A DNA stretch of 64,000 nt from Melioribacteraceae bacterium (GCA_041674625.1 JBAYVI010000001.1:11421-75420), one strand, 5' to 3'. Positions 12,847-58,660 are shown, counted from the first letter of the stretch. Numbers and translations are program-made. The notes: generated by a model from the letters alone, not told the origin.

Positions 12847-12855
12847 GGAATAAAT

Positions 12856-14849: not shown

Positions 14850-14850
14850 T

Positions 14851-24417: not shown

Positions 24418-24559
24418 TTTTTTAAATAAAACATAAATTATGGTTATACATCCTCAGTATAAAATATACCAAAAATCACTAAGGATGTCAAGAAAATTGC
24501 TGGAGATACTTTAGAGGTATTAGGCGATTATTAAAATAAAATATTTGGAGGAATTAAAT

Positions 24560-31985: not shown

Positions 31986-32309
31986 ATGAGAGTGAGTAGA
32001 GAGACAGCAGCATCCGGGGCAATATCACTAACAGTTGATCCTGGTATTCCATTTAGGTTAATAGCCATTAAAGTGCATTTGAGCGCAGTCGGTGGGGCTG
32101 GCAATTTAACCGCAACGACAGATTCAATTATCGGGGCTACTTATGACGCAGTATTAACTCTTCAAGATATGACCGCCGTAACAGATTATATTTATGTACC
32201 AGACAACCCGATCCCATTTGTAGATGGTGATAAAGTTGTAATTGCATGGGCTAATGCAAGTAATGTTACTTATGGGATAGAAGCGTTTTGGGTTCCAGAC
32301 AATATATAA
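31986..32309 (+). CDS. hypothetical protein (107 aa)
   Basis: Track ORF with an AGAGGGA SD. Confidence 0.5.
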   Translation: MRVSRETAASGAISLTVDPGIPFRLIAIKVHLSAVGGAGNLTATTDSIIGATYDAVLTLQDMTAVTDYIYVPDNPIPFVDGDKVVIAWANASNVTYGIEAFWVPDNI

Positions 32310-32312: not shown

Positions 32313-34103
32313 ATGATACTTGAATCTTCCATAAAAAGATTTTCTGGGATATCTTCTGATTCCAAGCCAGATACCGATGTTCCATCTGGTTCTGAATTTT
32401 TTGAATTAGACACAGGAAATACTTTTAAATTCCATGATTCATCATGGTACCCATTTGGGATATCGATTAATGATGGTAATGGATTTAATATTGGTATAAA
32501 TAGCCCATTGCCTACTAATGGAGATTCTGTTTATTATAAAGATATTGATTTAGATAGGTGTAATATAACTGGATGGACAGGGACAGTACTTGATTTATTC
32601 ACTGGTGTTCATTCTGGTATAGAAAATACAGGTTCTAGTAATCCTAAAACAATTATTATTCATTTTGAAAGAACGATTGAGTTTGGTTCAGTCACCATAG
32701 GTAGTGCAGATGGAGGTAATTTTAGTAATGTCAAAGTGACTGTTAGAAATCCAGGTATAATTGAAACGATAGTTGTAGATGAGTCTAGCGATTCCACTAA
32801 TCTAACAAATAAAACGTATAACTTTGAAGATATACACAGGGTAGAATCATTAAAAATAGAATTTTATACCGCTGATATAGTTGAAGTAACACAAATATTT
32901 ATTCCAAAAATTAAAACTGTAAAAATTGACCCAAATAATAAAAGTCACCCTATACATTTTATAGATACTGATCATTCTGGAAGAGCTGCTCAGAATTCAA
33001 TTTTTGGAGATAGGATAGTAGGATGGAAAAAAACTTCAATGGCATTCCAATTTAATTATGGCTTTAGAACAAGAGATTTTACATTAACACAAACAAATGG
33101 AGGAACTGTAACTTCTTCTGATAGTGTTATTATATTATCTACAAGTACGAATGTTGGTGGAGTTGCTGCTGCTGAAACAGTAGATTCTTTAAGGTATGTC
33201 CCAGGTAATGAAGCGTACGCATTTTTTACAGCTATATTTTCTACTCCAAAGGTAAATTCATATCAAAGAGCCGGGATATTTGACTCTAAAAATGGATTTT
33301 TTATCGGGTATGAATGTACTGATTTTAAAATTACTAGAAGAATAAATCAAATTGACTACCCACAAACTATTGATGTTTCAAAAGTTCTACCATTAGAAGC
33401 ATTTGATCCAACAAAAGGTAATGTATATAAAATAAGTTTCGGATATCTCGGATTTGCAACAATAAATTTTGAAATAATGAATCCAGAGGGAGAATGGAAT
33501 TCAATTGGGCAGATTGAATTCCCAAATGCATATACTGAGACTAGCATTGCAAGTACAAATCTTCCAATGAGGGGAGAAGTAGGCAATACAGGTAATAATA
33601 CAGATATTGTAGTTAAAAGTGGAAGCATTACTGCTGGTATTATTGATGGCGGTGATGATGACCCAAGCGCAAGAAGTTATACATATAGCAGGGGAACTGC
33701 CACAATATCTGCTGGAGATAACATGTTGGTTGCTTTTAGAAATATAACTACATTTGCAGGTAGAACGAATAGGGTAAAGGCAATAGCGCAACTATTGACT
33801 TCTGCGACGGAAGGAACAAAGCCAGTTAGGTGGAAGATTGTTTTCAATCCAACATTTACAAATACCCCAACATGGGCAGCAATAAATTCAGACTCAATAA
33901 TTGAGTATTCAACAAATGCAACTATAACATTTGGGACTGGAGAAATAGGGACAGAATGGAATATGGCAAAAGCAGATTCATTTTTTGAAGATGTAGAATC
34001 TCTTGGAGGGCATATGTATCCTGGTCAAACTGCTGTAGTTGTCGTCAATTCTGCTGGATCAAACGATACTGAATTTTCTATTAGATGGAAGGAGCTATTT
34101 TAA
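32313..34103 (+). CDS. large structural-type protein (596 aa; beta-rich, fibre/decoration candidate)
   Basis: Track ORF. The composition is Ser/Thr/Asn/Gly-rich and beta-like. No catalytic motif recognised. Confidence 0.55.
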   Translation: MILESSIKRFSGISSDSKPDTDVPSGSEFFELDTGNTFKFHDSSWYPFGISINDGNGFNIGINSPLPTNGDSVYYKDIDLDRCNITGWTGTVLDLFTGVHSGIENTGSSNPKTIIIHFERTIEFGSVTIGSADGGNFSNVKVTVRNPGIIETIVVDESSDSTNLTNKTYNFEDIHRVESLKIEFYTADIVEVTQIFIPKIKTVKIDPNNKSHPIHFIDTDHSGRAAQNSIFGDRIVGWKKTSMAFQFNYGFRTRDFTLTQTNGGTVTSSDSVIILSTSTNVGGVAAAETVDSLRYVPGNEAYAFFTAIFSTPKVNSYQRAGIFDSKNGFFIGYECTDFKITRRINQIDYPQTIDVSKVLPLEAFDPTKGNVYKISFGYLGFATINFEIMNPEGEWNSIGQIEFPNAYTETSIASTNLPMRGEVGNTGNNTDIVVKSGSITAGIIDGGDDDPSARSYTYSRGTATISAGDNMLVAFRNITTFAGRTNRVKAIAQLLTSATEGTKPVRWKIVFNPTFTNTPTWAAINSDSIIEYSTNATITFGTGEIGTEWNMAKADSFFEDVESLGGHMYPGQTAVVVVNSAGSNDTEFSIRWKELF

Positions 34104-35741: not shown

Positions 35742-36206
35742 ATGGCAAGAGTTACCTGGAATAGTAAACAAGTTATAGATTCTATAAAAGCAACTCAATC
35801 ACAGTCGATGAATGACGCTTGTGAATTTTTAAGTGATAAAATAAAGGATTCCATGAAGCCTGGAACTGGTAGATGGTGGCCTTCTAAAAAGGGCGATGGC
35901 TCTTTACACCAAGCTTCGATCCCTAATACAGCACCAGCCCCAGATACGGAAGAATTGAAAAATTCAATTTCTTGGGCGGCATCAACTGGTAGTAGCGGTG
36001 GGGGAGAAGGTAGTGAAAAAGTAACCGCACCTTTTTACGGCGCGAATACCAATATCATTGCTGGGAAAATAGGAACAACTAACGGAAAAGGTATTCTCCA
36101 TGAGATGGCTTGGACGATTGACGGAGCTAAAAGACCGTTTATAAGACCAGCATTCACTGAAAGCGAAGATGAATTAATCAGAATACTTGGGAAAAATAAA
36201 ATATGA
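35742..36206 (+). CDS. HK97 gp10-like tail-proximal protein
   Basis: Size, position and the ELKNSISW motif. Confidence 0.55.
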   Translation: MARVTWNSKQVIDSIKATQSQSMNDACEFLSDKIKDSMKPGTGRWWPSKKGDGSLHQASIPNTAPAPDTEELKNSISWAASTGSSGGGEGSEKVTAPFYGANTNIIAGKIGTTNGKGILHEMAWTIDGAKRPFIRPAFTESEDELIRILGKNKI

Positions 36207-36625
36207 GTATAAGCGAATTAGCAACAGGGGTATATAATTATTCACAAGTAGCGAGTAATTTTAAAACGAGTATCAATGGTAGGGTTTATCAAGTTCGTGC
36301 TCCTCAAAATCCTACATATCCATTTGTTATATTCTTCTTCCCTGTCGATACCATTACGCATTTTATGAACGAACAAGCTGTAGCGGCAAATGCAGTATTA
36401 AATATTAGTTTACAGTTTAATATTTATTCTCAAAATCAGTCCACAAGTGAAATTAATACCATAGATGGATATTTAACGGATAGATTTGATTTCGCTAACT
36501 TAACTGTATCTGGATATTATTGCTTTGATTTGTATAGAACTCATAAAATCCCCCCTATGTGGGTAGAAGACATCCAAGGTTATATTTCTTCCGTAATTTA
36601 TCAAGTGCAATTACAAAAAAATTAA
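36203..36625 (+). CDS. tail completion/terminator protein (DUF3168-like)
   Basis: VYQVRAPQNPTYPFVIF pattern and position. Confidence 0.55.
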   Translation: MSISELATGVYNYSQVASNFKTSINGRVYQVRAPQNPTYPFVIFFFPVDTITHFMNEQAVAANAVLNISLQFNIYSQNQSTSEINTIDGYLTDRFDFANLTVSGYYCFDLYRTHKIPPMWVEDIQGYISSVIYQVQLQKN

Positions 36626-36656: not shown

Positions 36657-37283
36657 ATGAAAAATATTAAACTTGCAATAGCAGTCCCATTAAGTCATAA
36701 CAGCGTTCCATTACAGTTCTTCGAGTCATATGTAGCGATGTTGAAGCCATGTAGACATATGTTCATTCATGCTAGTAGCTATCAAGGTGTCGATCATATG
36801 CGCAATCAGTTAATTGAAGGAGCAATAGTATACAATTGTTCACATATATTATTCCTTGATGTAGACCATCGGCATCATCCAGAAACAATTACAAAACTAT
36901 TATCTCATAAATTGCCCATTGTCTCAGGTCTTTCATATATGCGCAATGCTGATTATGAACCATGTATGTTTCGTGGGATGATAAATAAATATGAAACGAT
37001 TACAGAGTGGGAAGAAAATTCTTTGGTTGAAGTAGATAGTGTTGGCGCTGCCTGTTTATTAGTTGATATGAAAGTATTTAACGACATACAAAGGCCATAT
37101 TTCAAATTTATGGAAAATCCCGACCCAACTGCAAAATATGGAATAGGAGAAGACGTAGTATTCTGCAATAAGGCAAAACAAGCAGGATATAAAATTTATG
37201 TAGACACAAGCTGTACTAATAAACACATTGGACAAATTGAAGTAGATGGAGATATTTATAAAAAATGGAATGGTGCTAATTAA
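36657..37283 (+). CDS. GT-A fold glycosyltransferase (paralog 2)
   Basis: LFLDVDHRHHPETITKLLSH, GEDVVFCNKAKQAGYKIYVDTS and HIG. Confidence 0.7.
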   Translation: MKNIKLAIAVPLSHNSVPLQFFESYVAMLKPCRHMFIHASSYQGVDHMRNQLIEGAIVYNCSHILFLDVDHRHHPETITKLLSHKLPIVSGLSYMRNADYEPCMFRGMINKYETITEWEENSLVEVDSVGAACLLVDMKVFNDIQRPYFKFMENPDPTAKYGIGEDVVFCNKAKQAGYKIYVDTSCTNKHIGQIEVDGDIYKKWNGAN

Positions 37284-37855
37284 TGTTAAACTATAAAGAT
37301 GTATACAATAAAGTTTATTCTGAAAAAGATGATTATGGAGACATAAAGCATTCAAGGCCAGATTTAAAAGAAAAAGTTATTTTGGACTTTATCGATAACA
37401 AAGATGGGACGGTATTGGATATCGGTTCTGGTTCTGGTTATTATTTATCCTCATTGATTAATCATGGAATACACGCCTTCGGTATAGAAGTTAGTGATAT
37501 TTGCTGTGAAAAATATCTAACAAGCTTACCACATAAATGTACAGATATAATTAAATATTCTAAATTCAATACCACTCCTAAATTTGATTATGCAATATGC
37601 AACGATTTTATTGAACATATTTATATTGAAGATTTAGACAGCGTGTTAAAATCAATTGTTAAATTAAGTGGCGATTGTTTATTTGGAATTGCTAATCACA
37701 ATGAATTTTTGTGCGGTATGCAAATTCACCAGATAGTCCAAGGTGTTAACTTTTGGATTGAAAAACTAAATGAATACTATAAAAATGTAGAATTGGTTTC
37801 TATTTTAATGGATTCTAGGTTCTTTTTTGTAAAATGTTCTAACAAAAAAAGATGA
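37283..37855 (+). CDS. class I SAM-dependent methyltransferase
   Basis: Motif I VLDIGSGSGYY with a downstream acidic loop. Confidence 0.7.
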   Translation: MLNYKDVYNKVYSEKDDYGDIKHSRPDLKEKVILDFIDNKDGTVLDIGSGSGYYLSSLINHGIHAFGIEVSDICCEKYLTSLPHKCTDIIKYSKFNTTPKFDYAICNDFIEHIYIEDLDSVLKSIVKLSGDCLFGIANHNEFLCGMQIHQIVQGVNFWIEKLNEYYKNVELVSILMDSRFFFVKCSNKKR

Positions 37856-37942
37856 TATTTCAGAAACTAATGAAGGATTTTATGACGCTATCAAATCAAC
37901 TAATACTGATGAGACTAATAATTTATCGGGTGAGTTAATTAA

Positions 37943-38800
37943 ATGAAAATTTTGGTCTTAGGTGCTAGTGGGATGCTTGGCAGTTCTATGCTAAATGTAA
38001 TGAGCGAAAATAAAAAATTAGATGTATTCGGAACAGTAAGGGGAAAATCAGATAAGAAATTTTTTACCCAACAAATCCAAGATAAAGTTCTCCATAACGT
38101 AAATATAGAAAATGAAAATACATTAAATGGATTGTTCGTTTCTTTAAAGCCAGACGTAGTTATTAATTGTGTTGGGATAGTAAAGCAAATTGATGACGCG
38201 AATAGTCCGTTAAAATCTATAGCTATAAATTCTTTGTTCCCCCATAAATTGAAATCATTATGCGATTCTTTTGATTCTAGGTTAATACATATCAGTACAG
38301 ATTGTGTATTCTCTGGTAAATATGGGATGTATAAAGAAGAAGATGTCTCTGACTGTACAGATTTTTATGGCAAGACTAAATATTTAGGAGAGGTTATTTC
38401 AGATAGATCGTTAACGATAAGAACCTCTATAATTGGCCCAGAGTTAAAAACGAACCATGGATTACTTAACTGGTTTTTAAGTCAAGGAAAAGAATGCAAT
38501 GGGTATAGCAATGCGGTTTTTAGTGGTTTCCCAACTGTAGTATTGTCCCAGATATTAAGAGATATCATTATTCACGATGAGTCGATTAGTGGGTTATATA
38601 ACATTGCTTCTGAAAAAATTTCAAAATTTGATTTACTGAGATTAATAGCTGATATTTATAAAAAAGATATTAAAATTAATGACTATAAAGATTTTACAAT
38701 CGATAGGTCTTTAGATGGTTCTAAATTTAATTTAAAGTCTGGGTACATAACTCCTAATTGGGAAAGCATGATTAATACAATGAGAGGTATTAATGTTTAG
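37943..38800 (+). CDS. RmlD-like NAD(P)-dependent sugar 4-reductase
   Basis: MKILVLGASGMLGS Rossmann motif and a YGKTK catalytic-type motif. 285 aa. Confidence 0.75.
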   Translation: MKILVLGASGMLGSSMLNVMSENKKLDVFGTVRGKSDKKFFTQQIQDKVLHNVNIENENTLNGLFVSLKPDVVINCVGIVKQIDDANSPLKSIAINSLFPHKLKSLCDSFDSRLIHISTDCVFSGKYGMYKEEDVSDCTDFYGKTKYLGEVISDRSLTIRTSIIGPELKTNHGLLNWFLSQGKECNGYSNAVFSGFPTVVLSQILRDIIIHDESISGLYNIASEKISKFDLLRLIADIYKKDIKINDYKDFTIDRSLDGSKFNLKSGYITPNWESMINTMRGINV

Positions 38801-39803
38801 TAACAAAACGGTATTAATAACAGGTGGAACGGGATCATTTGGGAGCGTTGTCGCGAAACGGTTACTGACTAACAACGTAAAAGAAGTTCGGATATTTAGC
38901 CGCGACGAAAAGAAACAAGAAGATATGAGAATCTCGGTGAACGATGCGAGATTGAAATTCTATATTGGTGATGTCAGAGATTACGGTAGTGTTGATTCTG
39001 CGATGATAGGGGTCAATTATGTATTCAATGCCGCCGCACTTAAGCAAGTACCTTCATGCGAATTTTTCCCAATGGAGGCGATAAAAACCAATGTTATTGG
39101 TGCCGATAATGTGATGAGTTCTGCAATAAAGAATAATGTAGAGCGGGTTGTTATTTTAAGTACTGATAAATCTGTTTATCCAATTAATGCAATGGGCATG
39201 ACGAAAGCTATTTCTGAAAAGGTAATGGTCTCAAAGGCGATGAAACAACGTGCTGGAGAAACGGTATTATGTGCTACTAGATATGGTAATGTAATGGCTT
39301 CCCGTGGATCTGTAATTCCCTTGTTTGTATCTCAATTAAAAAATAATGAGGAATTAACGGTAACAGACCCAGATATGACAAGATTTCTTATGTCCTTAGA
39401 CGATTCAATAGATTTGGTATTTTATGCTTTGATAAATGGTGGACAAGGTGATATTTTTGTTCAAAAGTCTCCAGCATCGACCGTGGGTGTTTTGGCCCAA
39501 GCATTAAAAGAAATGTTTGCAAAAGATAATAATATAAAAATTATTGGAACTCGACACGGAGAAAAATTATTTGAATCACTTATTTCAAGGGAAGAGATGG
39601 TAAGAGCCGTTGATCATGGGGATTATTATTGTATTAATCCGGATAATAGGGATTTAAATTATAATAAGTATTTCGATTCAGGAAATACGAATATTGATAA
39701 GATACAAGATTACACTTCACATAATACTACTAGATTGAGCATTGAAGAAACTAAAGAATTGTTGTTTTCATTGGATTATATTAAGGAAGAGTTGAATGCT
39801 TAA
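38793..39803 (+). CDS. UDP-GlcNAc 4,6-dehydratase/5-epimerase (CapE/FnlA/WbvB family)
   Basis: LITGGTGSFGS, IFSRDEKKQ, AAALKQVPSCEFFP, INAMGMTK (MxxxK), YGNVMASRGSVIPLF and IIGTRHGEK. It closely resembles S. aureus CapE as I remember it. Confidence 0.85.
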   Translation: MFSNKTVLITGGTGSFGSVVAKRLLTNNVKEVRIFSRDEKKQEDMRISVNDARLKFYIGDVRDYGSVDSAMIGVNYVFNAAALKQVPSCEFFPMEAIKTNVIGADNVMSSAIKNNVERVVILSTDKSVYPINAMGMTKAISEKVMVSKAMKQRAGETVLCATRYGNVMASRGSVIPLFVSQLKNNEELTVTDPDMTRFLMSLDDSIDLVFYALINGGQGDIFVQKSPASTVGVLAQALKEMFAKDNNIKIIGTRHGEKLFESLISREEMVRAVDHGDYYCINPDNRDLNYNKYFDSGNTNIDKIQDYTSHNTTRLSIEETKELLFSLDYIKEELNA

Positions 39804-40902
39804 GGTGATGACAATTGTTGGGACTAGGCCCGAATTAATAAAAATGTCTAGGGTTATAGATAAATTAGATAAAAATACAAATCATATTTTAGTACATACT
39901 GGTCAGAATTATGACTATGAGTTGAATCAGATTTTTTTCGACGAACTTAAAATAAGAAAACCAGATTATTTTTTAGAAGTTGCTGGTGAAAATACAGCAC
40001 AAACGATAGCAAACATTATCGAAAGAACAGATAAGGTAATAGAGGCAGAAAGTCCAGATGCTTTTGTAATATACGGAGATACCAATTCGTGTCTTTCTGT
40101 AATTTCAGCCAAAAGGAGAAAAGTGCCTGTATTCCATATGGAAGCAGGCAATAGGTGTTTTGATCAAAGAGTTCCAGAAGAATTAAATAGAAAGATAATA
40201 GACCAGTTATCTGATATTAATATTGTTTTATCTGATAGAGCTAGAGAAAATCTTGTACTAGAAGGAATAAGACCAGAAACTATATTTAAGTCTGGTTCTC
40301 ATATGAAAGAAGTTTTAGATTACTACATGTCTGATGTGTATAGGTCAGACGTACTAAATAGATTAAAATTAAAAAGTTCAAGTTATTTTGTGTTTAGTTT
40401 TCATAGGGAAGAAAATATTGACGACATAGATAATTTAAAAACTATAATTAAATCGATAAAGGCAGTATCTGCAACATATAACCTCCCTGTTATAGTATCC
40501 ACTCACCCTAGAACAAAGAAAGCATTAGATGATTTAAATATTAGTACAGATGAAAAGATTATTTTTAGTAAGCCGTTTGGGTTATTTGATTACATAAAGT
40601 TGCAAATCAATGCAAAATGTGTTGTCTCAGATAGCGGTACAATAACAGAAGAGAGTTCTCTACTCGGTTTTCCTGCTGTTACTATTAGGAATACTCATGA
40701 AAGGCCAGAGGGAATGGATAATGGTGTTTTAATCATGTCTGGTGTAGATACTGGGTCAATAATGGATTCGGTAGATGTTGCTATAAAATGCGGCAAGCCA
40801 CATGCGATTGATGAATACAATAAACAAGATGTATCTACCCATATATTAAAATTGATATATAGTCATACTGGATACATTAATAGAACCGTATGGCATAAAT
40901 AA
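39796..40902 (+). CDS. non-hydrolysing UDP-HexNAc 2-epimerase (WecB/FnlC/CapG family)
   Basis: TIVGTRPELIKMS, YGDTNS, HMEAGNR and VSDSGTITEES. Confidence 0.85.
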   Translation: MLKVMTIVGTRPELIKMSRVIDKLDKNTNHILVHTGQNYDYELNQIFFDELKIRKPDYFLEVAGENTAQTIANIIERTDKVIEAESPDAFVIYGDTNSCLSVISAKRRKVPVFHMEAGNRCFDQRVPEELNRKIIDQLSDINIVLSDRARENLVLEGIRPETIFKSGSHMKEVLDYYMSDVYRSDVLNRLKLKSSSYFVFSFHREENIDDIDNLKTIIKSIKAVSATYNLPVIVSTHPRTKKALDDLNISTDEKIIFSKPFGLFDYIKLQINAKCVVSDSGTITEESSLLGFPAVTIRNTHERPEGMDNGVLIMSGVDTGSIMDSVDVAIKCGKPHAIDEYNKQDVSTHILKLIYSHTGYINRTVWHK

Positions 40903-40933
40903 TGATAACGGTTAATGTGTTATTAGTGAAGCA

Positions 40934-41758
40934 ATGAAAAGAATACCTAAGATAGTTCATATGTATTGGGACGGAACACCTATGTCTAAACTACAGACTT
41001 TTACTGTAACTTCTTTTTGTAGGTTAAATCCAGATTGGAAAGTAATAGTACATCTTGATAAATTAAGGTATCGTGGGAACAATAAATATATACCTTCCTA
41101 TGTACGAGAAGATTATTTCCATATAGTGAAGGATAATAAACAAGTTAATATAGATGAAGTAAATCTTTCTGATTATGGCGTCAGTGGAGATTTACATCCG
41201 ATATTAAGATCAGATATATTGAGGTATCATTGGCTATATAATGAGGGAGGTGTTTGGTCAGATTTTGATGTTATTTGGTTAAAACCTATTCATTATTTAA
41301 GCACTATAGCTGGAACTGATTCATTTGGGGTTACTTTATGCATGTACGATGGGAAAAAGAAACATCATAATGTAAGTGTATTGGTCAGTTCCAAAGGCCA
41401 CGAATTTTATAGGTATGCCATATATTTATGCAATGAAATAAAAAATAAAATAACAGAAAACCCGGACCATCAGGAGTTCGGGAATTCAATTTTTAATAAA
41501 GCATTCCCTAAGCCTGAAGACGCCTTGAGTAAATTCCCAGATATGATTAATTTAAAATATGAAACATTTTTCCCGTATTCTATTTTTAATATGGACGCGC
41601 TGTATTTAAGTACGGACTTAACGTATATAACAGACTCGGTTATTGGTGTACATTGGTTTAACGGCCACAAGTATAGTAAGGACTACGTAAATAACAATGG
41701 TTTCAGTAGAGATTGTAGTATGACAGAAATCATTAAAAATGAGGGTTATAATGACTAA
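40934..41758 (+). CDS. glycosyltransferase with DXD sugar-binding motif (Gly_transf_sug-like)
   Basis: IPKIVHMYW, RSDILRYHWLYNEGGVWSDFDV. Confidence 0.7.
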   Translation: MKRIPKIVHMYWDGTPMSKLQTFTVTSFCRLNPDWKVIVHLDKLRYRGNNKYIPSYVREDYFHIVKDNKQVNIDEVNLSDYGVSGDLHPILRSDILRYHWLYNEGGVWSDFDVIWLKPIHYLSTIAGTDSFGVTLCMYDGKKKHHNVSVLVSSKGHEFYRYAIYLCNEIKNKITENPDHQEFGNSIFNKAFPKPEDALSKFPDMINLKYETFFPYSIFNMDALYLSTDLTYITDSVIGVHWFNGHKYSKDYVNNNGFSRDCSMTEIIKNEGYND

Positions 41759-42584
41759 AAGAAATATTTTTTTATTTAAGGCAGAAGGAAAAGAAAATTT
41801 CGGAGAATACTTATGTAAGAGTGTTATACAAAAGATGGGGTTTGGACTTAATAATTATTCTAATGTTAACCAGATAACAGAACCAATTGATTATATAATG
41901 ACTGGGATAGGTGGATTTCTAAACAATGAAATCCATTCTTTATATTTAACTAAAGCCAAGAAGTGGTATGTGTGGGGTAGCGGAGTTCATTGCATTCCTT
42001 TACCTTGGCATAAATTATCGGAAGACATCATAAAGAACAAATGTATTATAACTGCTTTAAGAGGTCCGATGACCAGGGATTATTACGGGATCAAAGATGA
42101 TATTACACTAGGTGATGCTGGCTACTTAGCTTCTTATTTTTTTAAATTCCCAGTAAATGAGAAGAAGAAGAATGTACTCATTAATCATCATTATGATAAT
42201 GTTAAAAAACCGATGAAAGGAATAGATATTCATATATCGTCTTTGATGGACTCAGACATTAATGGTTCTTTTGACAATCAGTTTAAATACATATTGAATA
42301 GTATATGTAACGCAAATATAGTAATGACTAGCTCTATGCACGTAGCTATAGTTGCTTATTCTTATGGTATTCCCTTTGCAATGGTAGCCAAGAGAGAGAC
42401 TGATTTAGTTAAAGAGTGGAAGTGGCATGATACATTATTGAATATGGGCATAACAAAGAAAATAGTATTGTGTGAGAGTATAGAAGATGGTTGGGCTTGG
42501 TGGAACAGTGTTCAGAAAGATATACGTCCAATTACTAAAGAATATCAGGGAACAATAATAAAGGCATTTCCCGTAATACTATGA
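41739..42584 (+). CDS. polysaccharide pyruvyl transferase family protein
   Basis: The C-terminal VMTSSMHVAIVAYSYGIPFAMV is typical of PS_pyruv_trans. Confidence 0.65.
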   Translation: MRVIMTKRNIFLFKAEGKENFGEYLCKSVIQKMGFGLNNYSNVNQITEPIDYIMTGIGGFLNNEIHSLYLTKAKKWYVWGSGVHCIPLPWHKLSEDIIKNKCIITALRGPMTRDYYGIKDDITLGDAGYLASYFFKFPVNEKKKNVLINHHYDNVKKPMKGIDIHISSLMDSDINGSFDNQFKYILNSICNANIVMTSSMHVAIVAYSYGIPFAMVAKRETDLVKEWKWHDTLLNMGITKKIVLCESIEDGWAWWNSVQKDIRPITKEYQGTIIKAFPVIL

Positions 42585-43402
42585 AGTGTTATTTAGCATA
42601 TTCAGCAAATCCAGATGTAAGACATAAAGCGTCAACTGGGGGATTTTGCAAAGAATTTTTACGTTTTTGCATAGAGGGGAAAATAATAGATAAGTCAATA
42701 CTAACAATTCTTGGAGAAGGAGAAGAAGCTTTAATCCCAAGAACTATAATTACTGATGATATAGAGAAGATAATGTCTACGAAGAGTAATTCTATATATG
42801 ATAAAACTAATCCATTATCCATTTTATCTAGTTTGAATAAAAACGAAAGTTATATTTTTGTAGGTTTGCCATGTCATATTTACTCAGTTAAAAAATATTG
42901 CAGCAAACACAATATCCGAATTATAACAATATCTTTATTCTGCAATCATACATCAGACAATAAATATTATAAAAGTGTTTTAGATAAAGCAAACCTGAGT
43001 GAAATAGATGTAAAACATTTCGAATATAGAGGATCTGGATGGCCTGGGTTTGAAAAAATAATTACCAATGAAGACCAGGAAATTAAGATTGACCATATAG
43101 AGGGATGGGATAATTATGTAAAAAAATATATGCAAATGCTACCAAAATGCAAGGTGTGCACCAGAATGATTTCGGAAGAAGCAGACATATGTGTTGGCGA
43201 TGCATGGATGCAAAAAGTATTAAATAACGATAGCAATGGAACTAATATGGTTGTGGCGATGACCACAACAGCGGATAAACTTGTAATGGATTGTTGTAAA
43301 AGTGGATATATTCATATTGAACATTTAGATATATCTGAATTTGAGGCCCAGAATAATAGGTCTGTTAAAATTAAGAAAGATAGAAGAGAGGCTTATGAAT
43401 AG
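42581..43402 (+). CDS. F420-hydrogenase beta-subunit C-terminal-like (FrhB/FdhB-C) protein
   Basis: VGLPCHIYSVKK, RGSGWPG, CxxC and GDAW. This family is commonly paired with pyruvyl transferases in polysaccharide loci. Confidence 0.6.
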   Translation: MKCYLAYSANPDVRHKASTGGFCKEFLRFCIEGKIIDKSILTILGEGEEALIPRTIITDDIEKIMSTKSNSIYDKTNPLSILSSLNKNESYIFVGLPCHIYSVKKYCSKHNIRIITISLFCNHTSDNKYYKSVLDKANLSEIDVKHFEYRGSGWPGFEKIITNEDQEIKIDHIEGWDNYVKKYMQMLPKCKVCTRMISEEADICVGDAWMQKVLNNDSNGTNMVVAMTTTADKLVMDCCKSGYIHIEHLDISEFEAQNNRSVKIKKDRREAYE

Positions 43403-44255
43403 CTGGAGTATGTCGATCCCTAAGGTTCTCAATTTGTATTGGGGTAAAAATAAACCATTATCTTTTATGAAGTACCTGACCGCTTTATCTTTTGTGAAAC
43501 ATAACCCAGATTGGGAGATAATAGTTTATTACCCATCTGTGGTAGAAAGTAAAATATTGTGGGATAGCAATGAACAAAAAGAATATAATTATGATGACAT
43601 TGATTATTTTGATAGATTAAGTAATATTAAAAATTTATCTTTAAGGAAAACCGAGTTTGGTGAATTTTCAAACTTATCAGAAGTACATAAATCAGATCTC
43701 ATTAGGCTTAAAATATTATCAACATCAGGTGGGGTTTGGTCAGATTTTGATATTTTTTATACAAAATCGATTAATGAATTCGATCTAAATAATACTGACA
43801 ATAAATTAAAAGATACATTTGTTTGCTTCACTAGTTATCATAGTATCGGGTTTTTAATGAGTTCTGGGAATAATAAATTCTTTGAAGAACTATATAAAAT
43901 GGCAATATATAATATAAAAAATGCTGAAAATCTACAATACCAAAATTTAGGTAGGGATTTATATAATTATTTTTTTAAATATAATGATTATAAAGCGATT
44001 AATTATTCAATTAAATTCAATTGTAACATTGCAAACATTACATTTGAAACGGTATATCCACTACAATGGAACCAGATAGATTTAATATTTGGCGATAACA
44101 AACAGCGATTACCAGAAAATACAGTTGGCGTACATTGGTTTGCTGGATCTCCAATAACATCTAGTGTAGAGAATAAAATTACAGAAGAAAATATCCACCT
44201 TAATAAAGATAAATTCCTTCTAAAACTAATGTGTGAATTACTTGAAGAAATATAG
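43395..44255 (+). CDS. glycosyltransferase with DXD sugar-binding motif (second copy)
   Basis: IPKVLNLYW, KSDLIRLKILSTSGGVWSDFDI. ATG 43395 is preferred over the track's TTG 43341. Confidence 0.7.
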   Translation: MNSWSMSIPKVLNLYWGKNKPLSFMKYLTALSFVKHNPDWEIIVYYPSVVESKILWDSNEQKEYNYDDIDYFDRLSNIKNLSLRKTEFGEFSNLSEVHKSDLIRLKILSTSGGVWSDFDIFYTKSINEFDLNNTDNKLKDTFVCFTSYHSIGFLMSSGNNKFFEELYKMAIYNIKNAENLQYQNLGRDLYNYFFKYNDYKAINYSIKFNCNIANITFETVYPLQWNQIDLIFGDNKQRLPENTVGVHWFAGSPITSSVENKITEENIHLNKDKFLLKLMCELLEEI

Positions 44256-45042
44256 TATTGTGTTTCCTTATTATAAAAGATCTAGTCAACTCCATAATTC
44301 ACTTATTTCGTTCCAACATCACTATAAAGATAGAAATGATTATGAAGTAATTGTCGTTGAAGATATTAAAAACTATAATAATGCAGAAGAACACGAAAAA
44401 CTATTAAAAGTATTAAAGTTTTATACACAAAATGCCGATAAGGTAGTTAATATAAAACTGATAAAATCGAGCTTTGAGAATTGTTATAATCCAGCTCCTT
44501 TATTTAATTTAGGAGTGAAAAACGCTAGTGGCGAATATTTAATTATAACAAATCCAGAGATATTCCATAAAGATAATATATTGAGTGCATGTGATGATAT
44601 ATTGTCTAAATACGATGACCATTATATAGTATTTTCTTGCCTTAATGTTGATGAGTATCCTAAAAGTGTATCTGATTTTGATGAATTTACTTTTAAACCA
44701 AAAATGTGGTATCAACATTTAAAATATAGAAATGCTTTATTCCATTTCTGTTCCTGCTTGTCGAAGAGACAGTATGAAGAAATTGGGGGATTTGATGAAA
44801 TATATTCATTAGGTATTGCATACGATGATGACGATTTCAGAGAAACAATAAATAAAGCAGGGATTCAATTCATAGCAACTGATTCATTTTTAACATTGCA
44901 TCAAGATCATGGAAGTGTGTTTGATAAATTGCCTGATTATGAAAAGAGATTGAATAGAAATAAAGCGTTGTATTATTTGAAGAAGCAAAATAAGTCAAGT
45001 GAGTATATTAACCAATTTTTAGGAGAGAATTTTGGTGGATAA
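44233..45042 (+). CDS. family 2 glycosyltransferase
   Basis: SIVFPYYKR, VVEDIKNYN, and a later DDDD acidic motif (AYDDDDF). Confidence 0.65.
   Translation: MNYLKKYSIVFPYYKRSSQLHNSLISFQHHYKDRNDYEVIVVEDIKNYNNAEEHEKLLKVLKFYTQNADKVVNIKLIKSSFENCYNPAPLFNLGVKNASGEYLIITNPEIFHKDNILSACDDILSKYDDHYIVFSCLNVDEYPKSVSDFDEFTFKPKMWYQHLKYRNALFHFCSCLSKRQYEEIGGFDEIYSLGIAYDDDDFRETINKAGIQFIATDSFLTLHQDHGSVFDKLPDYEKRLNRNKALYYLKKQNKSSEYINQFLGENFGG
44413..44442 (+). promoter_or_regulatory. sigma-28/FliA-type motif embedded in coding sequence
   Basis: TTAAAGTTTT-N11-TGCCGATAAG read in frame as LKFYTQNADK. It shares the 23-nt ATTAAAAGTATTAAAGTTTTATA with the intergenic copy at 13863. Confidence 0.4.
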
Positions 45043-45715
45043 AGAGAACATCCGTTTGGGAATTGGGCTTCCATTGGTAGACGACAAGGTACACACTGCA
45101 TTTTTAGATTCCTTTGTGATGATGAAGAAGCCAAATTTCGTATATATTAGGCCAACATTCCCATCAATGCAGATTGATGTAATTAGAAATCAATTGGTTA
45201 AGCAAGCATTAGAATCTGGTTGTACTCATTTGTTGATGCTAGATACGGATCAGGTATACCATGACCCAGATATGATTAGTAAAATGCTGGAACACGATAA
45301 AGATGTTGTATCAGCTATCGTACATAGGCGCTATCCTGGCTTTGATCCCATCACTCTAAGGGGTGAACCTGGGAAGTACTTAATGGTTCCAGATGAAGAA
45401 ATTTTAGCAGCAAGAGAATTAGATAACCACCTAATTGAAATAGACGCGACAGGTGGAGGTTGTTTACTTTACAAGACTGAAGTATTTTTAAAAATCCCGC
45501 CAGCTTGGTTTGAATTTTCAAGAACTGAAGGCGGCGATGTCATAGGAGAGGATGTAAATTTTTGTTATAAATTGAAGCAAAATGGATATAAGATATATTG
45601 TGATACGTCTATTGATATTGGGCATTTAAGCAATTTAGAAATAAATTGGGCGACATATCGGCTTTACGGCCACTTAAAGAAACTACAAAAAGAAGATGAA
45701 AATAAGAAATTATAA
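45032..45715 (+). CDS. GT-A fold glycosyltransferase (paralog 3)
   Basis: LMLDTDQVYHDPDMISKMLEH, GEDVNFCYKLKQNGYKIYCDTS and GHL. TTG/GTG start after an AGGAGA SD. Confidence 0.7.
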   Translation: MVDKENIRLGIGLPLVDDKVHTAFLDSFVMMKKPNFVYIRPTFPSMQIDVIRNQLVKQALESGCTHLLMLDTDQVYHDPDMISKMLEHDKDVVSAIVHRRYPGFDPITLRGEPGKYLMVPDEEILAARELDNHLIEIDATGGGCLLYKTEVFLKIPPAWFEFSRTEGGDVIGEDVNFCYKLKQNGYKIYCDTSIDIGHLSNLEINWATYRLYGHLKKLQKEDENKKL

Positions 45716-45748: not shown

Positions 45749-46165
45749 ATGGCACAAGCATATGCTGGACGTGAAACACAGGTAACATTGAATGGTGGCA
45801 CAATTAGTCTTTTAGGGTCTTGGACTCTTAATGGGCAGGAAGTTGAGCTTTTGGAGCAAACTGCTTTCGGAGACACCTATCGTCAGTTTTTGCCCGGTTT
45901 GAAGAGCGGAGGCACTATTTCTTTTAACGGTTTGTACGATGGCACCGATACTGCGGGCCAAACCGCCCTTCGGAATTATAACGCTAACAATACTAGCGTG
46001 ACTGACATTAAGTTATACGTGGATGATACCAGCTATTATACGCCGAGTACCACAAATCCATTATCATATTGCTGGGTGACTGGCTTTGATGTTGGCTCTG
46101 AGGTCGGTGGCTTAGTCACTGCTACATTTTCACTCGCCGTGTCTGGCAAGATGGTACTCGTATAA
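45749..46165 (+). CDS. major tail (tube) protein
   Basis: 138 aa with a strong GGAGG SD. The Gly/Thr-rich beta-type sequence is typical of siphovirus tube proteins. It is followed by chaperones and the tape measure gene. Confidence 0.7.
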   Translation: MAQAYAGRETQVTLNGGTISLLGSWTLNGQEVELLEQTAFGDTYRQFLPGLKSGGTISFNGLYDGTDTAGQTALRNYNANNTSVTDIKLYVDDTSYYTPSTTNPLSYCWVTGFDVGSEVGGLVTATFSLAVSGKMVLV

Positions 46166-46264: not shown

Positions 46265-47131
46265 ATGGAAGAATTAAGGTTTTGTGAATGCAATTGTGGT
46301 GAGAGAGTTAAAAATAATAGGTATCGATTTTTATCGGGTCATGCTAAGAATCTAGCTAACCAAGAACCTCCGTTGTGTGCTTGTAATTGTGGGCAGAGAG
46401 TTGAATTTGATCATTGGAAAAATCGGTGGAATAAATTTGTAAATAATCATTACGTCCCTACAGAACAAGCAGTAAAAAATATTTCAAAAGCGAAAATTAA
46501 AAGTAACGAAACCAAAAGAATGAATAGGATAAAGGAATTGGGCCATCCTCCTGATTGCGCCTGTGGTTGTGGTGGAAAAGTATCGATGAATAGGAATCAT
46601 TCAAAGTGGAACGATTATTTAGTTGGTCATTTCCCAAAGGTTAGAAAAGTATCAGAAATTACTAAACAAAAGTTATCTGATATTGGGAAAGAGTTGGTCG
46701 GAGAGAAAAATCCATTTTACGGGAAATGTCATTCAAAAGAAACTAAAGAAAAATTAAGTCTATTAGCTATTGCGATGGGAAAGACAGGAGAAAAAGCTAA
46801 TAATTGGAAAGGTGGAATACACCCGATCTACCAGACAATAAGAAATTGTGAAAAATATCAATATTGGAGACTTAAAACATTCACCAGAGACGGGTTCGCT
46901 TGCCAAGAATGTGGAGACACAAAATCCAGGTTTAATGCTCACCACATATATCAATTTAAGCAAATTTTAGATGATTATAATATTACCACTCTTGAACAAG
47001 CCATAGCATGTGACGCTTTATGGGATATAGATAATGGAATCACACTTTGTAAGGAATGTCATAAAGAATTGCATAAAGCCATGAATAAGGCACTACGTAG
47101 AAAACAAAAGTTGCTTAAGACTATCAATTAA
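46265..47131 (+). CDS. HNH endonuclease with CxCxCG repeats and a NUMOD3-like motif
   Basis: Three C-x-C-x-CG-x-x-V repeats. GEKNPFYGKCHSKETKEKLS is NUMOD3-like. The HNH region is CQECG...AHHIYQF...NGITLCKECHKELH. Confidence 0.8.
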   Translation: MEELRFCECNCGERVKNNRYRFLSGHAKNLANQEPPLCACNCGQRVEFDHWKNRWNKFVNNHYVPTEQAVKNISKAKIKSNETKRMNRIKELGHPPDCACGCGGKVSMNRNHSKWNDYLVGHFPKVRKVSEITKQKLSDIGKELVGEKNPFYGKCHSKETKEKLSLLAIAMGKTGEKANNWKGGIHPIYQTIRNCEKYQYWRLKTFTRDGFACQECGDTKSRFNAHHIYQFKQILDDYNITTLEQAIACDALWDIDNGITLCKECHKELHKAMNKALRRKQKLLKTIN

Positions 47132-58658: not shown

Positions 58659-58660
58659 AA

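Follow-up and report, generated by a model that had tools for sequence, protein, structure and literature searches.

A glycan-synthesis gene island in the tail module of an uncultured large phage, a candidate system for virion glycosylation

The sequence analysed here, a 64-kb stretch (64,000 nucleotides) referred to below as the window, belongs to an uncultured large phage and carries 11 glycan-synthesis ORFs between two tail genes, which raises the question of what acceptor the encoded enzymes decorate. A first-pass annotation had described these ORFs as a tightly packed, co-oriented island and had proposed that their products glycosylate virion proteins. Coordinates, orientation and packing were verified: the 11 ORFs (36657..45715, all on the + strand) are intact, are spaced by -62 to +87 nt, and form an island of 9.1 kb whose GC content (0.317) is slightly lower than that of its flanks (0.36-0.39). 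Each of the earlier enzyme assignments was backed by profile searches (Pfam, TIGRFAM, PHROG, PDB), as was the further glycosyltransferase (GT) paralog noted outside the island.

29363..29974, + strand: capsid-proximal Anp1-like GT-A paralog, outside the island (phrog_1574, 2.8e-14; weak Anp1/GT2 matches)
36203..36625, + strand: left flank, tail-terminator-like gene (by position only)
36657..37283, + strand: GT-A paralog 1, Anp1-like, DxD motif LDVDH (Pfam Anp1, 29.7 bits against a cut-off of 28.8; phrog_1574)
37283..37855, + strand: SAM-dependent methyltransferase (Methyltransf_12, Methyltransf_23)
37838..43427, + strand: window-specific replacement cassette of 5.6 kb and six genes (break in DNA colinearity with the related locus L049)
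37943..38800, + strand: RmlD-like C4 reductase, WbvR-type (RmlD_sub_bind, 6.5e-25; TIGR01214, 6e-26, below its cut-off)
38793..39803, + strand: UDP-GlcNAc 4,6-dehydratase/5-epimerase of the FnlA/CapE/WbvB class (Polysacc_synt_2, 1e-98; TIGR04130, 497 bits)
39796..40902, + strand: non-hydrolysing 2-epimerase of the CapG/FnlC/WbvD class (Epimerase_2, 8e-85; TIGR00236, 227.6 bits against a cut-off of 210)
40934..41758, + strand: DXD glycosyltransferase 1, Gly_transf_sug (Pfam, 1e-8)
41739..42584, + strand: polysaccharide pyruvyltransferase (PS_pyruv_trans, 34.6 bits against a cut-off of 25.3)
42581..43402, + strand: short FrhB/FdhB-like flavin/Fe-S protein (FrhB_FdhB_C, 2e-27; FrhB_FdhB_N)
43341..44255, + strand: DXD glycosyltransferase 2, Gly_transf_sug/Caps_synth (Pfam matches)
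44233..45042, + strand: GT2-family glycosyltransferase (weak Pfam GT2 match, E = 0.0016; EpsD, 2e-6)
45032..45715, + strand: GT-A paralog 3, the core tube-adjacent GT (Anp1, 42.2 bits against a cut-off of 28.8; phrog_1574, 1.9e-15)
45749..46165, + strand: right flank, major tail (tube) protein (phrog_158, 1.6e-12; fold)

Public gene calls start slightly later than the longest ORFs in three cases (41751, 43395 and 44260), and place the start of the last GT-A gene at 45035 instead of 45032.

The left border, 36203..36625, had been taken for a tail-completion gene, but the PHROG 'tail completion/Neck1' match belongs to the ORF directly before it (35742..36206), and PHROG and Pfam searches with 36203..36625 itself gave no match; its homologs form the left island border in 36 dereplicated IMG/VR loci. 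The tube assignment of the right border was upheld by the PHROG major tail protein match and by Foldseek matches to the tube proteins of GTA, monocin and lambda. A strong ribosome-binding site, AGGAGG, precedes the tube gene, whose GC content is 0.46.

The association between the glycan genes and the tail was examined by comparing the synteny of related loci, as the first-pass annotation had suggested. In every one of the 75 IMG/VR loci retrieved by the tube protein, the tube gene is preceded by an Anp1-like GT-A gene (phrog_1574), which lies within 1.5 kb in 74 of them; the exception has an endonuclease inserted between the two genes. Conversely, among 76 loci retrieved by the GT-A, the next downstream ORF is a tube homolog in 70 (72 with a profile), and the upstream ORF is a tube homolog in none. 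The GT-A/tube pairing is thus kept in every locus examined of a large uncultured clade. The interval between the terminator and tube genes ranges among relatives from 0.77 kb, where the GT-A alone forms a minimal island (L111), to 5.2 kb, and the 9.1 kb of the window is the largest seen. The cargo of the 36 dereplicated loci (99 ORFs) includes 29 Anp1-like GTs, 28 GT2 enzymes, 27 methyltransferases and six radical-SAM proteins; islands of GTs and methyltransferases at this site are the rule in this clade.

DNA colinearity with the closest relative, L049 (74-78% identity), stops at 37837 and restarts at 43428, and L049 has in place of the cassette 1.8 kb encoding a radical-SAM/SPASM protein and a methyltransferase. 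The swapped segment of the window contains the sugar pathway, a DXD GT, the pyruvyltransferase and the FrhB-like protein, and sequence comparison suggests that it behaves as an exchangeable cassette which would alter glycan chemistry between related phages. Outside it, the counterparts in L049 are 76% identical for the 37283 methyltransferase, which is probably a sugar O-methyltransferase, 85% for the GT2 enzyme, and 74% for DXD GT 2, which is also conserved in L004 (55%) and L001 (46%). Orthologs of GT-A paralog 1 (65-78% identical) lie directly 3' of the terminator gene in L004, L016 and L049, and those of the capsid-proximal paralog (67-87%) keep its position in L004, L018 and L049, with a weaker one in L047.

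The cassette encodes what appears to be a complete nucleotide-sugar pathway. The product of 38793 contains STDK and MGMTK (MxxxK) motifs, and its best PDB matches were FnlA (4j2o, 467 bits) and CapE (445 bits), against only 239 bits for a FlaA1-type dehydratase (2gn4); its TIGR04130 FnlA score is lower than the 730-bit equivalog cut-off. The product of 39796 best matched 4hwg (463 bits) and CapG (388 bits), whereas PDB chains deposited as UDP-GlcNAc 2-epimerase mostly scored about 86-131 bits, with 4neq reaching 201. By sequence, therefore, the two fall clearly into the FnlA/CapE and CapG/FnlC classes, respectively. The best PDB matches of 37943 were dTDP-4-dehydrorhamnose reductases. The three-enzyme route to a 6-deoxy-L-HexNAc sugar that had been proposed is supported by these results, but its L-FucNAc option is disfavoured, because an RmlD-like 4-reductase favours L-RhaNAc/L-QuiNAc. 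An RmlD-like reductase corresponds to the WbvR arrangement, which gives L-RhaNAc and then L-QuiNAc, and the cassette pathway is accordingly predicted to be of the WbvB/WbvR/WbvD type, with UDP-L-RhaNAc/L-QuiNAc as its putative products.

No sequence relative of the pyruvyltransferase was found in the PDB search. Its gene adjoins the FrhB-like gene also in L133, L135 and L136, the adjacency occurring in two further gene contexts (L133/L134 and L135/L136), and the three-gene module of DXD GT 1, pyruvyltransferase and FrhB-like protein is kept in L133 (44%, 58% and 57% identity, respectively). The FrhB-like protein belongs to a subfamily of about 250-280 aa, most matches being 53-70% identical, and may be a partner of the pyruvyltransferase that reduces a pyruvyl to a lactyl group. 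The family profile of the GT2 enzyme (A3) matched the GT2 structures of chondroitin synthase (1e-12), a probable beta-1,3-N-acetylglucosaminyltransferase (6h1j), GalT1 and SpsA.

Of the Anp1-like paralogs, 36657 and 45032 match both Pfam Anp1 and phrog_1574, and 29363 matches Anp1/GT2 more weakly; all three retain catalytic residues, and for 45032 the residues D71, D73, E173, D174 and H198 are invariant. An AF2 model of 45032 (pLDDT 95.5) had STIV A197 as its best structural match (E = 2.9e-10, TMt 0.70), with COLGALT1, LH3, Mimivirus R699, Mnn9 and ppGalNAc-T2 as the other nearest folds. Those neighbours that are cellular enzymes act on proteins or protein-linked glycans, and the modelled GT-A is closest to protein-acting GT-As, although GT-A structural similarity is broad (TM 0.5-0.7). 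Homologs in phrog_1574 from unrelated small phages and a Methanobacteriales virus lie inside the structural gene block (the context being partial for some); in two Manatee Spring phages the homolog is flanked by the MCP gene on one side and by tail genes on the other.

The absence of Wzx, Wzy and initiating phosphoglycosyltransferase (PGT) genes had been noted earlier, and a Kyte-Doolittle scan agreed, finding no transmembrane segment in any of the 11 island ORFs. No Wzx, Wzy, PGT, ABC-type or acyltransferase membrane gene was found in the window, where the only multi-TM ORF on the coding strand is a holin-like gene (58625..58960). The public contigs carrying this sequence are 120-145 kb, so that the window covers about half or less; in a further ~8.6 kb beyond its left end, no glycan-related gene was called. 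Intergenic terminator-like sites were absent between 34 and 48.5 kb, such sites being not commoner overall than in shuffles (7 versus 5.9), and we infer that the island is co-transcribed and expressed together with the late morphogenesis genes.

We consider that there is somewhat better than an even chance that the island carries out a cytoplasmic, membrane-independent glycosylation of virion proteins, most likely of the tube, which remains a putative acceptor. In this scheme 38793 followed by 37943 would convert host UDP-GlcNAc into UDP-L-RhaNAc, which 39796 would 2-epimerise to UDP-L-QuiNAc, all three enzymes being soluble. Six soluble GT-A-type transferases (the three Anp1-like paralogs, two DXD GTs and one GT2) would then start and extend a glycan on cytoplasmic protein acceptors; the methyltransferase would O-methylate it, and the pyruvyltransferase would transfer pyruvate from PEP, which the FrhB-like partner may turn into a lactyl group. 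The tube-adjacent GT-A would be the conserved core enzyme, with the tail tube protein as its most likely acceptor, and the capsid-proximal paralog may serve a head protein. In the tube protein, an invariant S95 and a position 102 that is always S or T belong to the motif D-x-T-S-Y-Y-x-P-x-x-T, which adjoins a variable-length insertion; this motif is a candidate site whose surface exposure is putative, the tube model being of only medium quality (pLDDT 67). The proposal of virion glycosylation is partly supported: the conserved gene pair gives it a firmer link to the tail, and the fold of the GT-A is closest to protein-modifying enzymes. Against it, adjacency in a vertically inherited structural module can mean shared ancestry and not functional coupling, and genes of unrelated kinds also occur at this site.

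The strongest competing explanation, which we regard as unlikely but of appreciable weight, is that the target is a glycan of the host envelope (O-antigen, capsule or S-layer), remodelled during infection, with phage enzymes building or altering a lipid-linked repeat unit on the host undecaprenyl carrier and the host initiating transferase, flippase, polymerase and ligase completing it, so that superinfection is blocked or progeny are kept off cell debris. The gene set is that of a typical O-antigen/CPS locus minus the membrane steps, and the endolysin type (GH108 and PG_binding_3) suggests a Gram-negative host and hence LPS. Most O-antigen/CPS glycosyltransferases are soluble too, and because soluble GTs normally act on lipid-linked acceptors, a host PGT, flippase and ligase could finish a surface-glycan pathway. 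However, the window lacks the corresponding membrane genes, and the island, which shows no transcription signals of its own, belongs to the late tail module, a poor timing for surface rebuilding. Seroconversion genes are usually accessory and lysogeny-associated, unlike the core GT-A with its invariable tube pairing; minimal islands contain a single GT, and the fold neighbours act on proteins. Envelope remodelling is also how the GT and sugar genes of marine myophages are usually interpreted (PMC7029224).

It is also conceivable, but we think quite improbable, that the target is a non-structural phage or host protein, a small peptide or a metabolite. At the cassette position, L004, L016, L049 and others encode methyltransferases and radical-SAM/SPASM proteins, the latter as in RiPP maturation; GT2-type enzymes also occur in relatives, the GT2 family includes peptide S/O-glycosyltransferases, and the acceptor of the island enzymes is putative. 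The window itself, however, has no radical-SAM gene, and in the island neither a small ORF resembling a precursor peptide nor a transporter was noticed; the combination of six GTs, a nucleotide-sugar pathway and pyruvylation points to an oligo- or polysaccharide, and the strict pairing with the tube gene would be left unexplained.

There is little to recommend the idea that the terminator/tube site is a permissive insertion hot spot, whose glycan genes came as passive cargo from a polysaccharide locus of a host and have no joint role in the phage: an EcoRI restriction-modification pair (L018) and HNH endonuclease genes (L016, L169) do occur there, and the island has the slightly lower GC content, but the cargo over 36 loci is overwhelmingly GTs and methyltransferases and non-random, the ORFs are intact and tightly packed, the conserved GT-A paralogs keep their catalytic residues, and other phage-like contigs contain the pyruvyltransferase/FrhB and pathway modules too. 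Least credible is hypermodification of phage DNA for restriction evasion, for example as glycosylated hydroxymethyl-pyrimidines. In its favour, phage GTs are classically DNA-modifying, diverse DNA glycans appear in work cited in PMC12619734, and the window genes include ones for a dCMP deaminase-like protein and a C5 DNA methylase. Against it, no hydroxymethylase or base-hypermodification gene was seen in the window, the island lies away from replication and nucleotide genes, known DNA glycosylation does not resemble its combination of pyruvylation, methylation and six GTs, and ordinary metagenomic reads yielded the contig in several data sets.

The nearest systems share some features with the island and differ in others. 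Mycobacteriophage virion glycosylation was reportedly shown experimentally by Freeman et al. (2023, Cell Host Microbe), and to our knowledge those systems include no nucleotide-sugar pathway or pyruvylation. They likewise combine phage GTs and methyltransferases, but glycosylation by the island enzymes is a prediction, they belong to actinobacteriophages, and their GTs share only the fold with 45032 (BFVD match to Mycobacterium phage Ardmore Gp87, E = 1e-5, TM ~0.45). According to work cited in PMC12619734 and PMC13313380, siphovirus capsid and tail tube subunits are modified in the cytoplasm by phage-encoded GTs with methyltransferases. [quoted passage not shown] GT genes lie by tail/MCP genes in Velanvirus and Aoguangviridae, metagenomic archaeal viruses whose authors speculate on tail/capsid glycosylation (PMC11706807), and pelagimyophages have GT-rich host-recognition clusters, for which O-chain modification was speculated (PMC7029224); these reports concern single GTs or scattered LPS-type genes, with no experiments, and unlike the island lack a conserved GT/tube pair, cassette structure or full sugar pathway. 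The WbvB/WbvR/WbvD pathway of V. cholerae O37 (cited in PMC10117803) and FnlABC/CapEFG follow the same three-enzyme logic, but lie in O-antigen/capsule clusters with PGT, Wzx and Wzy, which the tail module of the window lacks.

The closest known analogue is the fibril glycosylation cluster mg534-mg539 of Megavirus chilensis (Megavirinae C-clade), a virus-encoded system that does not rely on the glycosylation machinery of the host and is linked to L-RhaNAc/L-QuiNAc on capsid fibrils (PMC10117803). It comprises a 4,6-dehydratase/5-epimerase, a ~270-aa 4-reductase, a ~370-aa 2-epimerase, a GT, a ~280-aa pyruvyltransferase and further GTs, and 38793 has detectable homology to Mg534 (PDB 4TQG; 180 bits), although the window enzymes are nearer to bacterial FnlA/CapE/CapG (445-467 bits). 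It differs in belonging to a eukaryote-infecting giant virus with capsid-fibril acceptors and in having no tail module or Anp1-like GT-A/tube pairing, and the window adds the FrhB-like protein and the methyltransferase. The first-pass annotation had regarded a sugar pathway with pyruvylation in a tail module as undescribed; this novelty is tempered by the near-identical giant-virus gene set, by the clade-wide GT/methyltransferase islands, and by the same sugar pathway or DXD-GT/pyruvyltransferase/FrhB module in other phage-like contigs (L037, L133).

In conclusion, comparative genomics strengthens the link of the glycan genes to the tail, and the phage probably decorates its virions with a tailored glycan, made by enzymes that are encoded between its tail genes.

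All 11 ORFs that the first-pass annotation had described between 36657 and 45715 were found in place, all on the forward strand and spaced from -62 to +87 nt apart, and the enzyme family proposed for each was backed by Pfam and NCBIfam profile searches. By start position, the genes of this island are:

36657, + strand: Anp1-like GT-A glycosyltransferase
37283, + strand: SAM methyltransferase
37943, + strand: RmlD-like reductase
38793, + strand: Polysacc_synt_2 dehydratase
39796, + strand: non-hydrolysing 2-epimerase, above the TIGR00236 cut-off
40934, + strand: DXD 'Gly_transf_sug' glycosyltransferase
41739, + strand: polysaccharide pyruvyltransferase
42581, + strand: FrhB/FdhB-like protein
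43341, + strand: DXD 'Gly_transf_sug' glycosyltransferase
44233, + strand: GT2-like protein (weak Pfam match; its family profile matches GT2 structures)
45032, + strand: Anp1-like GT-A glycosyltransferase, phrog_1574 match

Public gene calls start four of the ORFs a few codons later, at 41751, 43395, 44260 and 45035. A profile built from seven homologs of 44233 matched chondroitin synthase, 6h1j (a probable beta-1,3-N-acetylglucosaminyltransferase), GalT1 and SpsA with E-values of up to 1e-12, and no sequence relatives of the pyruvyltransferase 41739 were found in the PDB. The further GT-A gene suspected at 29363, in the capsid-proximal region outside the island, proved to be a third Anp1-like copy and also matched phrog_1574, a PHROG labelled 'unknown function'.

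The gene at 45749..46165 was recognized as the tail tube gene both by its PHROG match (major tail protein) and by its fold, which resembles the GTA, monocin and lambda tubes. The assignment of a tail-completion gene to 36203..36625 did not hold, as the PHROG 'tail completion/Neck1' match falls on 35742..36206 instead; 36203..36625 had no match in the profile searches and is called a putative tail terminator from its position. Six glycosyltransferases and one methyltransferase, all free of transmembrane (TM) segments, lie within what is, from its position, a late structural gene block. Phage-encoded soluble glycosyltransferases, with or without methyltransferases, are the gene set looked for in a virion glycosylation system of the mycobacteriophage type.

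A GT-A profile (alignment A1) detected 334 relatives in IMG/VR, and gene adjacency was scored in the best 80 of these 334 loci. The ORF directly 3' of the GT-A gene was a tube homolog in 70 of 76 cases (72 of 76 when a profile was used), and the ORF 5' of it was a tube homolog in none of these loci. In the reciprocal analysis, loci were collected with the tube profile (34-61% identity), and 74 of the 75 that had enough upstream sequence carried a GT-A domain no more than 1.5 kb upstream of the tube gene; in the sole exception an endonuclease gene was inserted between the two. The interval between the terminator-like and tube genes measured 0.77-5.2 kb in 36 dereplicated loci, the smallest containing the GT-A gene alone (locus L111), and the 9.1 kb of the window is the largest seen. 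A Pfam census of 99 interval ORFs counted 29 Anp1-like GT-A proteins, 28 GT2 proteins, 27 SAM methyltransferases, six radical-SAM proteins, five DXD glycosyltransferases and a single NDP-sugar dehydratase/epimerase, and therefore the site serves specifically as a glycosylation locus and is not a general point of insertion; nucleotide-sugar pathways are rare in it.

Relatives of the window in IMG/VR include loci with 74-80% identical MCPs (L001, L004, L005, L007 and L009) and loci with 58% identical terminator-like proteins (L016-L019). All of these have GT-A paralogs in the same three places, namely capsid-proximal, just 3' of the terminator-like gene and just 5' of the tube gene, and the intervening genes differ. 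The cargo consists of radical-SAM/SPASM genes, methyltransferases, a DXD glycosyltransferase and a GT2-like gene in L001, L004 and L049, and of GT2, radical-SAM, methyltransferase and GT-B genes in L016 and L018; in L047, a more remote phage that was binned with a Lutibacter MAG, only two glycosyltransferases precede the tube gene. L018 (IMGVR_UViG_3300025030_001165) additionally has, as an insertion separating its terminator-like gene from its first GT-A gene, a complete EcoRI-type restriction-modification pair (4285..6222; EcoRI 2e-147, EcoRI methylase 2e-133).

Of the relatives, L049 is closest; its sample name, Hain_H41, hints at Hainich groundwater as the source, and its tube-adjacent GT-A is ~80-83% identical to that of the window. 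The two DNAs are colinear, with 74% identity up to 37837 and 78% identity again from 43428. Between these breakpoints the window has 5.6 kb encoding the reductase, the dehydratase/epimerase, the 2-epimerase, the first DXD glycosyltransferase, the pyruvyltransferase and the FrhB-like protein, whereas L049 has 1.8 kb encoding a radical-SAM/SPASM protein and a methyltransferase. The cassette has been replaced cleanly, and the flanks are conserved. In most close relatives the place of the cassette is taken by radical-SAM/SPASM genes (L004 17742..18803, L016 12550..13515, L049 6543..7604), which adjoin methyltransferase genes; none of the readings offered here explains these enzymes.

Another group of genes appears to be a second window-specific acquisition, as it includes two genes that are absent from L049 and L004:

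30288..31856, + strand: 522-aa protein with a GDSL/SGNH hydrolase domain, in a region with a GC content of ~0.50 versus ~0.35 elsewhere
31986..32309: gene grouped with the GDSL/SGNH gene
32313..34103: 596-aa protein, phrog_1645 'virion structural protein'

The genes absent from both relatives are the first and the last of these, and the region possibly encodes a glycan esterase or an acyl-modifying virion protein.

PDB and profile searches agreed with the earlier placement of the dehydratase 38793 in the CapE/FnlA/WbvB class. It matched FnlA (PDB 4j2o) with 467 bits and CapE with 445 bits, versus 239 bits for 2gn4, a FlaA1-type dehydratase, and it scored 497 bits against TIGR04130 (FnlA), under the 730-bit equivalog cut-off. 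STDK and MGMTK motifs are readable in its sequence, the latter being the MxxxK that typically takes the place of YxxxK in CapE-type enzymes. The 2-epimerase call for 39796 was likewise upheld (TIGR00236, 227.6 bits versus a cut-off of 210); the best PDB matches of this protein were 4hwg, with 463 bits, and CapG, with 388 bits. Of the chains that the PDB lists as UDP-GlcNAc 2-epimerase, most reached ~86-131 bits and one, 4neq, reached 201. The protein falls in the CapG/FnlC/WbvD class. The reductase 37943 matched RmlD_sub_bind (6.5e-25), scored 91 bits against TIGR01214, far under the cut-off of 224, and had dTDP-4-dehydrorhamnose reductases as its top PDB matches. Its family is consistent with that of the RmlD-type C4 reductases, and its substrate is putative. 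A dehydratase/epimerase, an RmlD-like reductase and a 2-epimerase together appear to correspond to WbvB, WbvR and WbvD of V. cholerae O37. The WbvB/WbvR/WbvD route leads to UDP-L-RhaNAc and then to UDP-L-QuiNAc, and by analogy these two nucleotide sugars are the predicted products in the window.

The first-pass annotation had regarded a complete sugar pathway within a tail module as new. No other case between a terminator-like gene and a tube gene was found, but the chemistry itself recurs elsewhere, in L037 and L133. Related modules were found on four contigs representing three distinct contexts (L133/L134, L135/L136 and L037). The module of DXD glycosyltransferase, pyruvyltransferase and FrhB-like protein recurs in L133/L134 (44%, 58% and 57% identity), a 69-kb AT-rich contig that also carries a 2-epimerase, FnlA-like, RmlD-like and HNH-like genes. 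In L133 (ENA ERZ26872897 NODE_23, 69 kb) positions 1..16756 form a large AT-rich, all-soluble glycan cluster with two sulfotransferases, three methyltransferases, a GATase-type amidotransferase and a GFO/IDH/MocA oxidoreductase, and no membrane protein is among its called genes. The pair of pyruvyltransferase and FrhB-like genes recurs in L135/L136, another phage-like contig; a fusion of the two was sought among FrhB homologs as Rosetta-stone evidence and none was found, so that their link is one of conserved adjacency only. L037 (IMGVR_UViG_3300013120_000030, 140 kb) is a large viral contig unrelated to the window, with a glycan cluster (3090..16944) that is flanked by a helicase/terminase-like gene on one side and a head-protease gene on the other. 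This cluster includes a 2-epimerase, a reductase, a DXD glycosyltransferase, a GT2-like gene, GT-B genes (several with large inserts) and a FnlA homolog interrupted in frame by a LAGLIDADG-type insert resembling an intein. Among GenBank phages, FnlA-like matches were confined to unannotated Staphylococcus (60%) and Listeria (33%) records, which are suspected to be host DNA, unannotated metagenomic records (32-39%) and distant cyanophage epimerases (~25% identity).

In an AF2 model of pLDDT 95.5 the tube-adjacent GT-A (45032) adopts a Rossmann-like fold; the protein has a DxD motif and, towards its C terminus, a metal or acceptor His, and D71, D73 (the DxD motif), E173, D174 and H198 are invariant across 27 diverse homologs. 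Its best fold neighbours in the PDB were STIV A197, human COLGALT1, the LH3 glycosyltransferase domain, Mimivirus R699, yeast Mnn9 and ppGalNAc-T2. The cellular enzymes among these act on proteins or protein-linked glycans, and A197 is an essential, minimal viral GT-A proposed to glycosylate the coat protein (PMC10551542). Because GT-A folds resemble each other generally, the ranking is no more than suggestive. The nearest BFVD matches are many uncharacterised glycosyltransferases of uncultured Caudovirales. An exhaustive profile search defined 923 clusters (50% identity) at E <= 1e-30, in many of which the GT-A is the C-terminal domain of a 400-960-aa fusion protein. In unrelated small phages from Manatee Spring the GT-A homolog has the MCP gene on one side and tail genes on the other, and in a Methanobacteriales virus with no annotated MCP it is flanked by a prohead protease gene and tail genes; the homolog in cyanophage S-TIM5 is not in such a position.

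An alignment of 42 tube homologs showed that S95 is invariant and that position 102 is always S or T, within the motif D-x-T-S-Y-Y-x-P-x-x-T, which is followed by an insertion of 0 to ~16 residues. These residues are a candidate glycosylation site, nothing more, in a protein whose AF2 model is of medium quality (pLDDT only 67).

The best-supported reading, which we hold to be slightly more likely than not, is that virion proteins are glycosylated in the cytoplasm, the tube being the likeliest acceptor and the cassette supplying L-RhaNAc/L-QuiNAc and pyruvyl or lactyl decoration. Indirect support for glycans on the tube comes from the pairing of GT-A and tube genes and from the conserved S/T positions of the tube protein. 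The main rival, remodelling of the host envelope glycan through the initiating phosphoglycosyltransferase (PGT) and export machinery of the host, is in keeping with the soluble glycosyltransferases that are normal in envelope-glycan pathways and with the standard reading of phage 'LPS genes' in the literature as O-chain modification (PMC7029224). As first noted, the island has no Wzx-, Wzy- or PGT-like products: a Kyte-Doolittle scan, a crude method, found zero TM segments in the island when all ORFs of at least 60 aa were scanned. By the same method, polytopic proteins on the coding strands of the 64-kb window were absent except for a two-TM holin-like gene (58625), and ~8.6 kb of a locus extending past the left end of the window (L131) held small ORFs of unknown function only. 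No PGT, flippase or ABC transporter and polymerase of a Wzx/Wzy- or ABC-dependent locus were found in the window and these ~8.6 kb, beyond which about half of the genome or more lies. A promoter and terminator scan, which does not extend to Bacteroidota-type promoters, showed no enrichment and nothing intergenic. Envelope remodelling appears unlikely. Lesser alternatives are that the acceptor is a peptide, a metabolite or a non-structural protein, an idea prompted by the radical-SAM/SPASM enzymes of the relatives, and that the genes are passive cargo. Hypermodification or glycosylation of DNA is given low weight because no hydroxymethylase was seen, the genes lie in the tail module and not among the replication and nucleotide genes, and the decorations are those of a polysaccharide.

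The closest analogue of the island by gene content is mg534-539 of Megavirus chilensis, which encodes a dehydratase/epimerase, a 4-reductase, a 2-epimerase, a glycosyltransferase, a pyruvyltransferase and a glycosyltransferase and is associated with L-RhaNAc/L-QuiNAc on the capsid fibrils (PMC10117803). As in the Megavirinae, the island unites a virus-encoded sugar pathway, glycosyltransferases and a pyruvyltransferase in one cluster. Mg534 (4TQG) and 38793 are homologous, with a score of 180 bits versus 467 bits for bacterial FnlA; independent acquisition from bacteria seems more likely than descent from a common cluster. Glycosyltransferase genes near tail or MCP genes were noted, without tests, in metagenomic archaeal viruses (PMC11706807).

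The closest analogue in biology is the glycosylation of mycobacteriophage capsids and tubes, reportedly described by Freeman in 2023. The characterised mycobacteriophage enzymes showed no sequence homology to the island glycosyltransferases and share only the fold with the GT-A (Ardmore Gp87, E = 1.3e-5, TM 0.42-0.48), and a tblastn search of 50,697 phage records with 45032 returned no actinobacteriophage. To our knowledge, phage virion glycosylation has been demonstrated only for some actinobacteriophages and has been considered rare elsewhere; a literature search found no report of tail-tube O-glycosylation in phages other than these.

The window is part of a siphovirus, and no integrase or other lysogeny gene is among its annotated ORFs. 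TerS, portal, protease-AAA fusion and MCP (24545..25807) genes were identified, and gene order points to 15033..16760, which has no terminase profile match, as the place of TerL. Several HNH endonucleases, a tape measure, a GpJ-like tip protein, a holin-like gene, a GH108 endolysin, an intein-containing ribonucleotide reductase and a C5 DNA methylase are also encoded. The sequence recurs in ENA contig ERZ27247358 k141_1400584 (120,690 bp), in the Logan assembly of SRR6484325 and, as a third public record, on a contig of 144,548 bp from an NCBI MAG that bears the label Melioribacteraceae. When 50,697 GenBank phages were searched for near-identical DNA with 30-50 kb, there was no match, and an MCP search found distant phages only. 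Because a tblastn search of the same 50,697 phages with the tube protein returned no homolog, there is no cultured relative for comparison. A single-protein search of genome contigs returned only two Woesearchaeota-binned contigs (~30% identity), which is uninformative on the host. Other features of the window are:

6997..7815, 25939..27036, 28665..29366 and 46265..47131: HNH/NUMOD-type homing endonucleases, at least four in the structural module, the last directly 3' of the tube gene; positions vary among relatives
8473..8922, 9934..10242 and 10242..11486, all - strand: NADAR-domain protein, dCMP deaminase-like protein and C5 cytosine DNA methylase
13303..13665, + strand: RF-1-domain peptide release factor-like gene, just 5' of the terminase genes
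21484..24132, + strand: 882-aa fusion in which a long acidic linker joins an N-terminal head-maturation protease (phrog_80) to a C-terminal AAA+/clamp-loader-like ATPase domain; prohead proteases are not usually built in this way
59691..60095, + strand: phrog_1158 'tail assembly chaperone' homolog, 3' of the endolysin gene and away from the tail genes
60993..63887, - strand: large subunit of ribonucleotide reductase, split by an intein that contains a LAGLIDADG homing endonuclease

In the proposed mechanism of virion glycosylation, the tube-coupled GT-A (phrog_1574) would glycosylate the tail tube and probably the head too, and an exchangeable glycan cassette between two conserved GT-A genes would be to the virion what serotype loci are to the O-antigen. 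The cassette of the window, the most elaborate of the clade, would make its own UDP-L-RhaNAc/L-QuiNAc and add pyruvyl or lactyl decoration. More broadly, we tentatively propose that a large siphovirus clade, wholly uncultured and with apparently Gram-negative hosts, may glycosylate its own tube, and probably its head, through a core GT-A and exchangeable cassettes, a giant-virus-type autonomy in a bacteriophage. The concept of virion glycosylation is already known; the novelty lies in the clade, in the pairing of GT-A and tube genes at all loci examined, in the arrangement as cassettes and in the sugar pathway embedded there. If this proposal is true, a widespread environmental phage clade has a glycosyltransferase as a core gene of its tail module, and phrog_1574, a large family of unknown function (~900 clusters at 50% identity, E <= 1e-30), gains a testable function. 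Its soluble protein-glycosylating enzymes would be of use for glycoengineering, and the reading of 'LPS-like auxiliary genes' in viromes could change. Phage particles would then be able to bear variable, cassette-encoded glycans, rare bacterial sugars included, which could affect their stability, adsorption and recognition by hosts or grazers.
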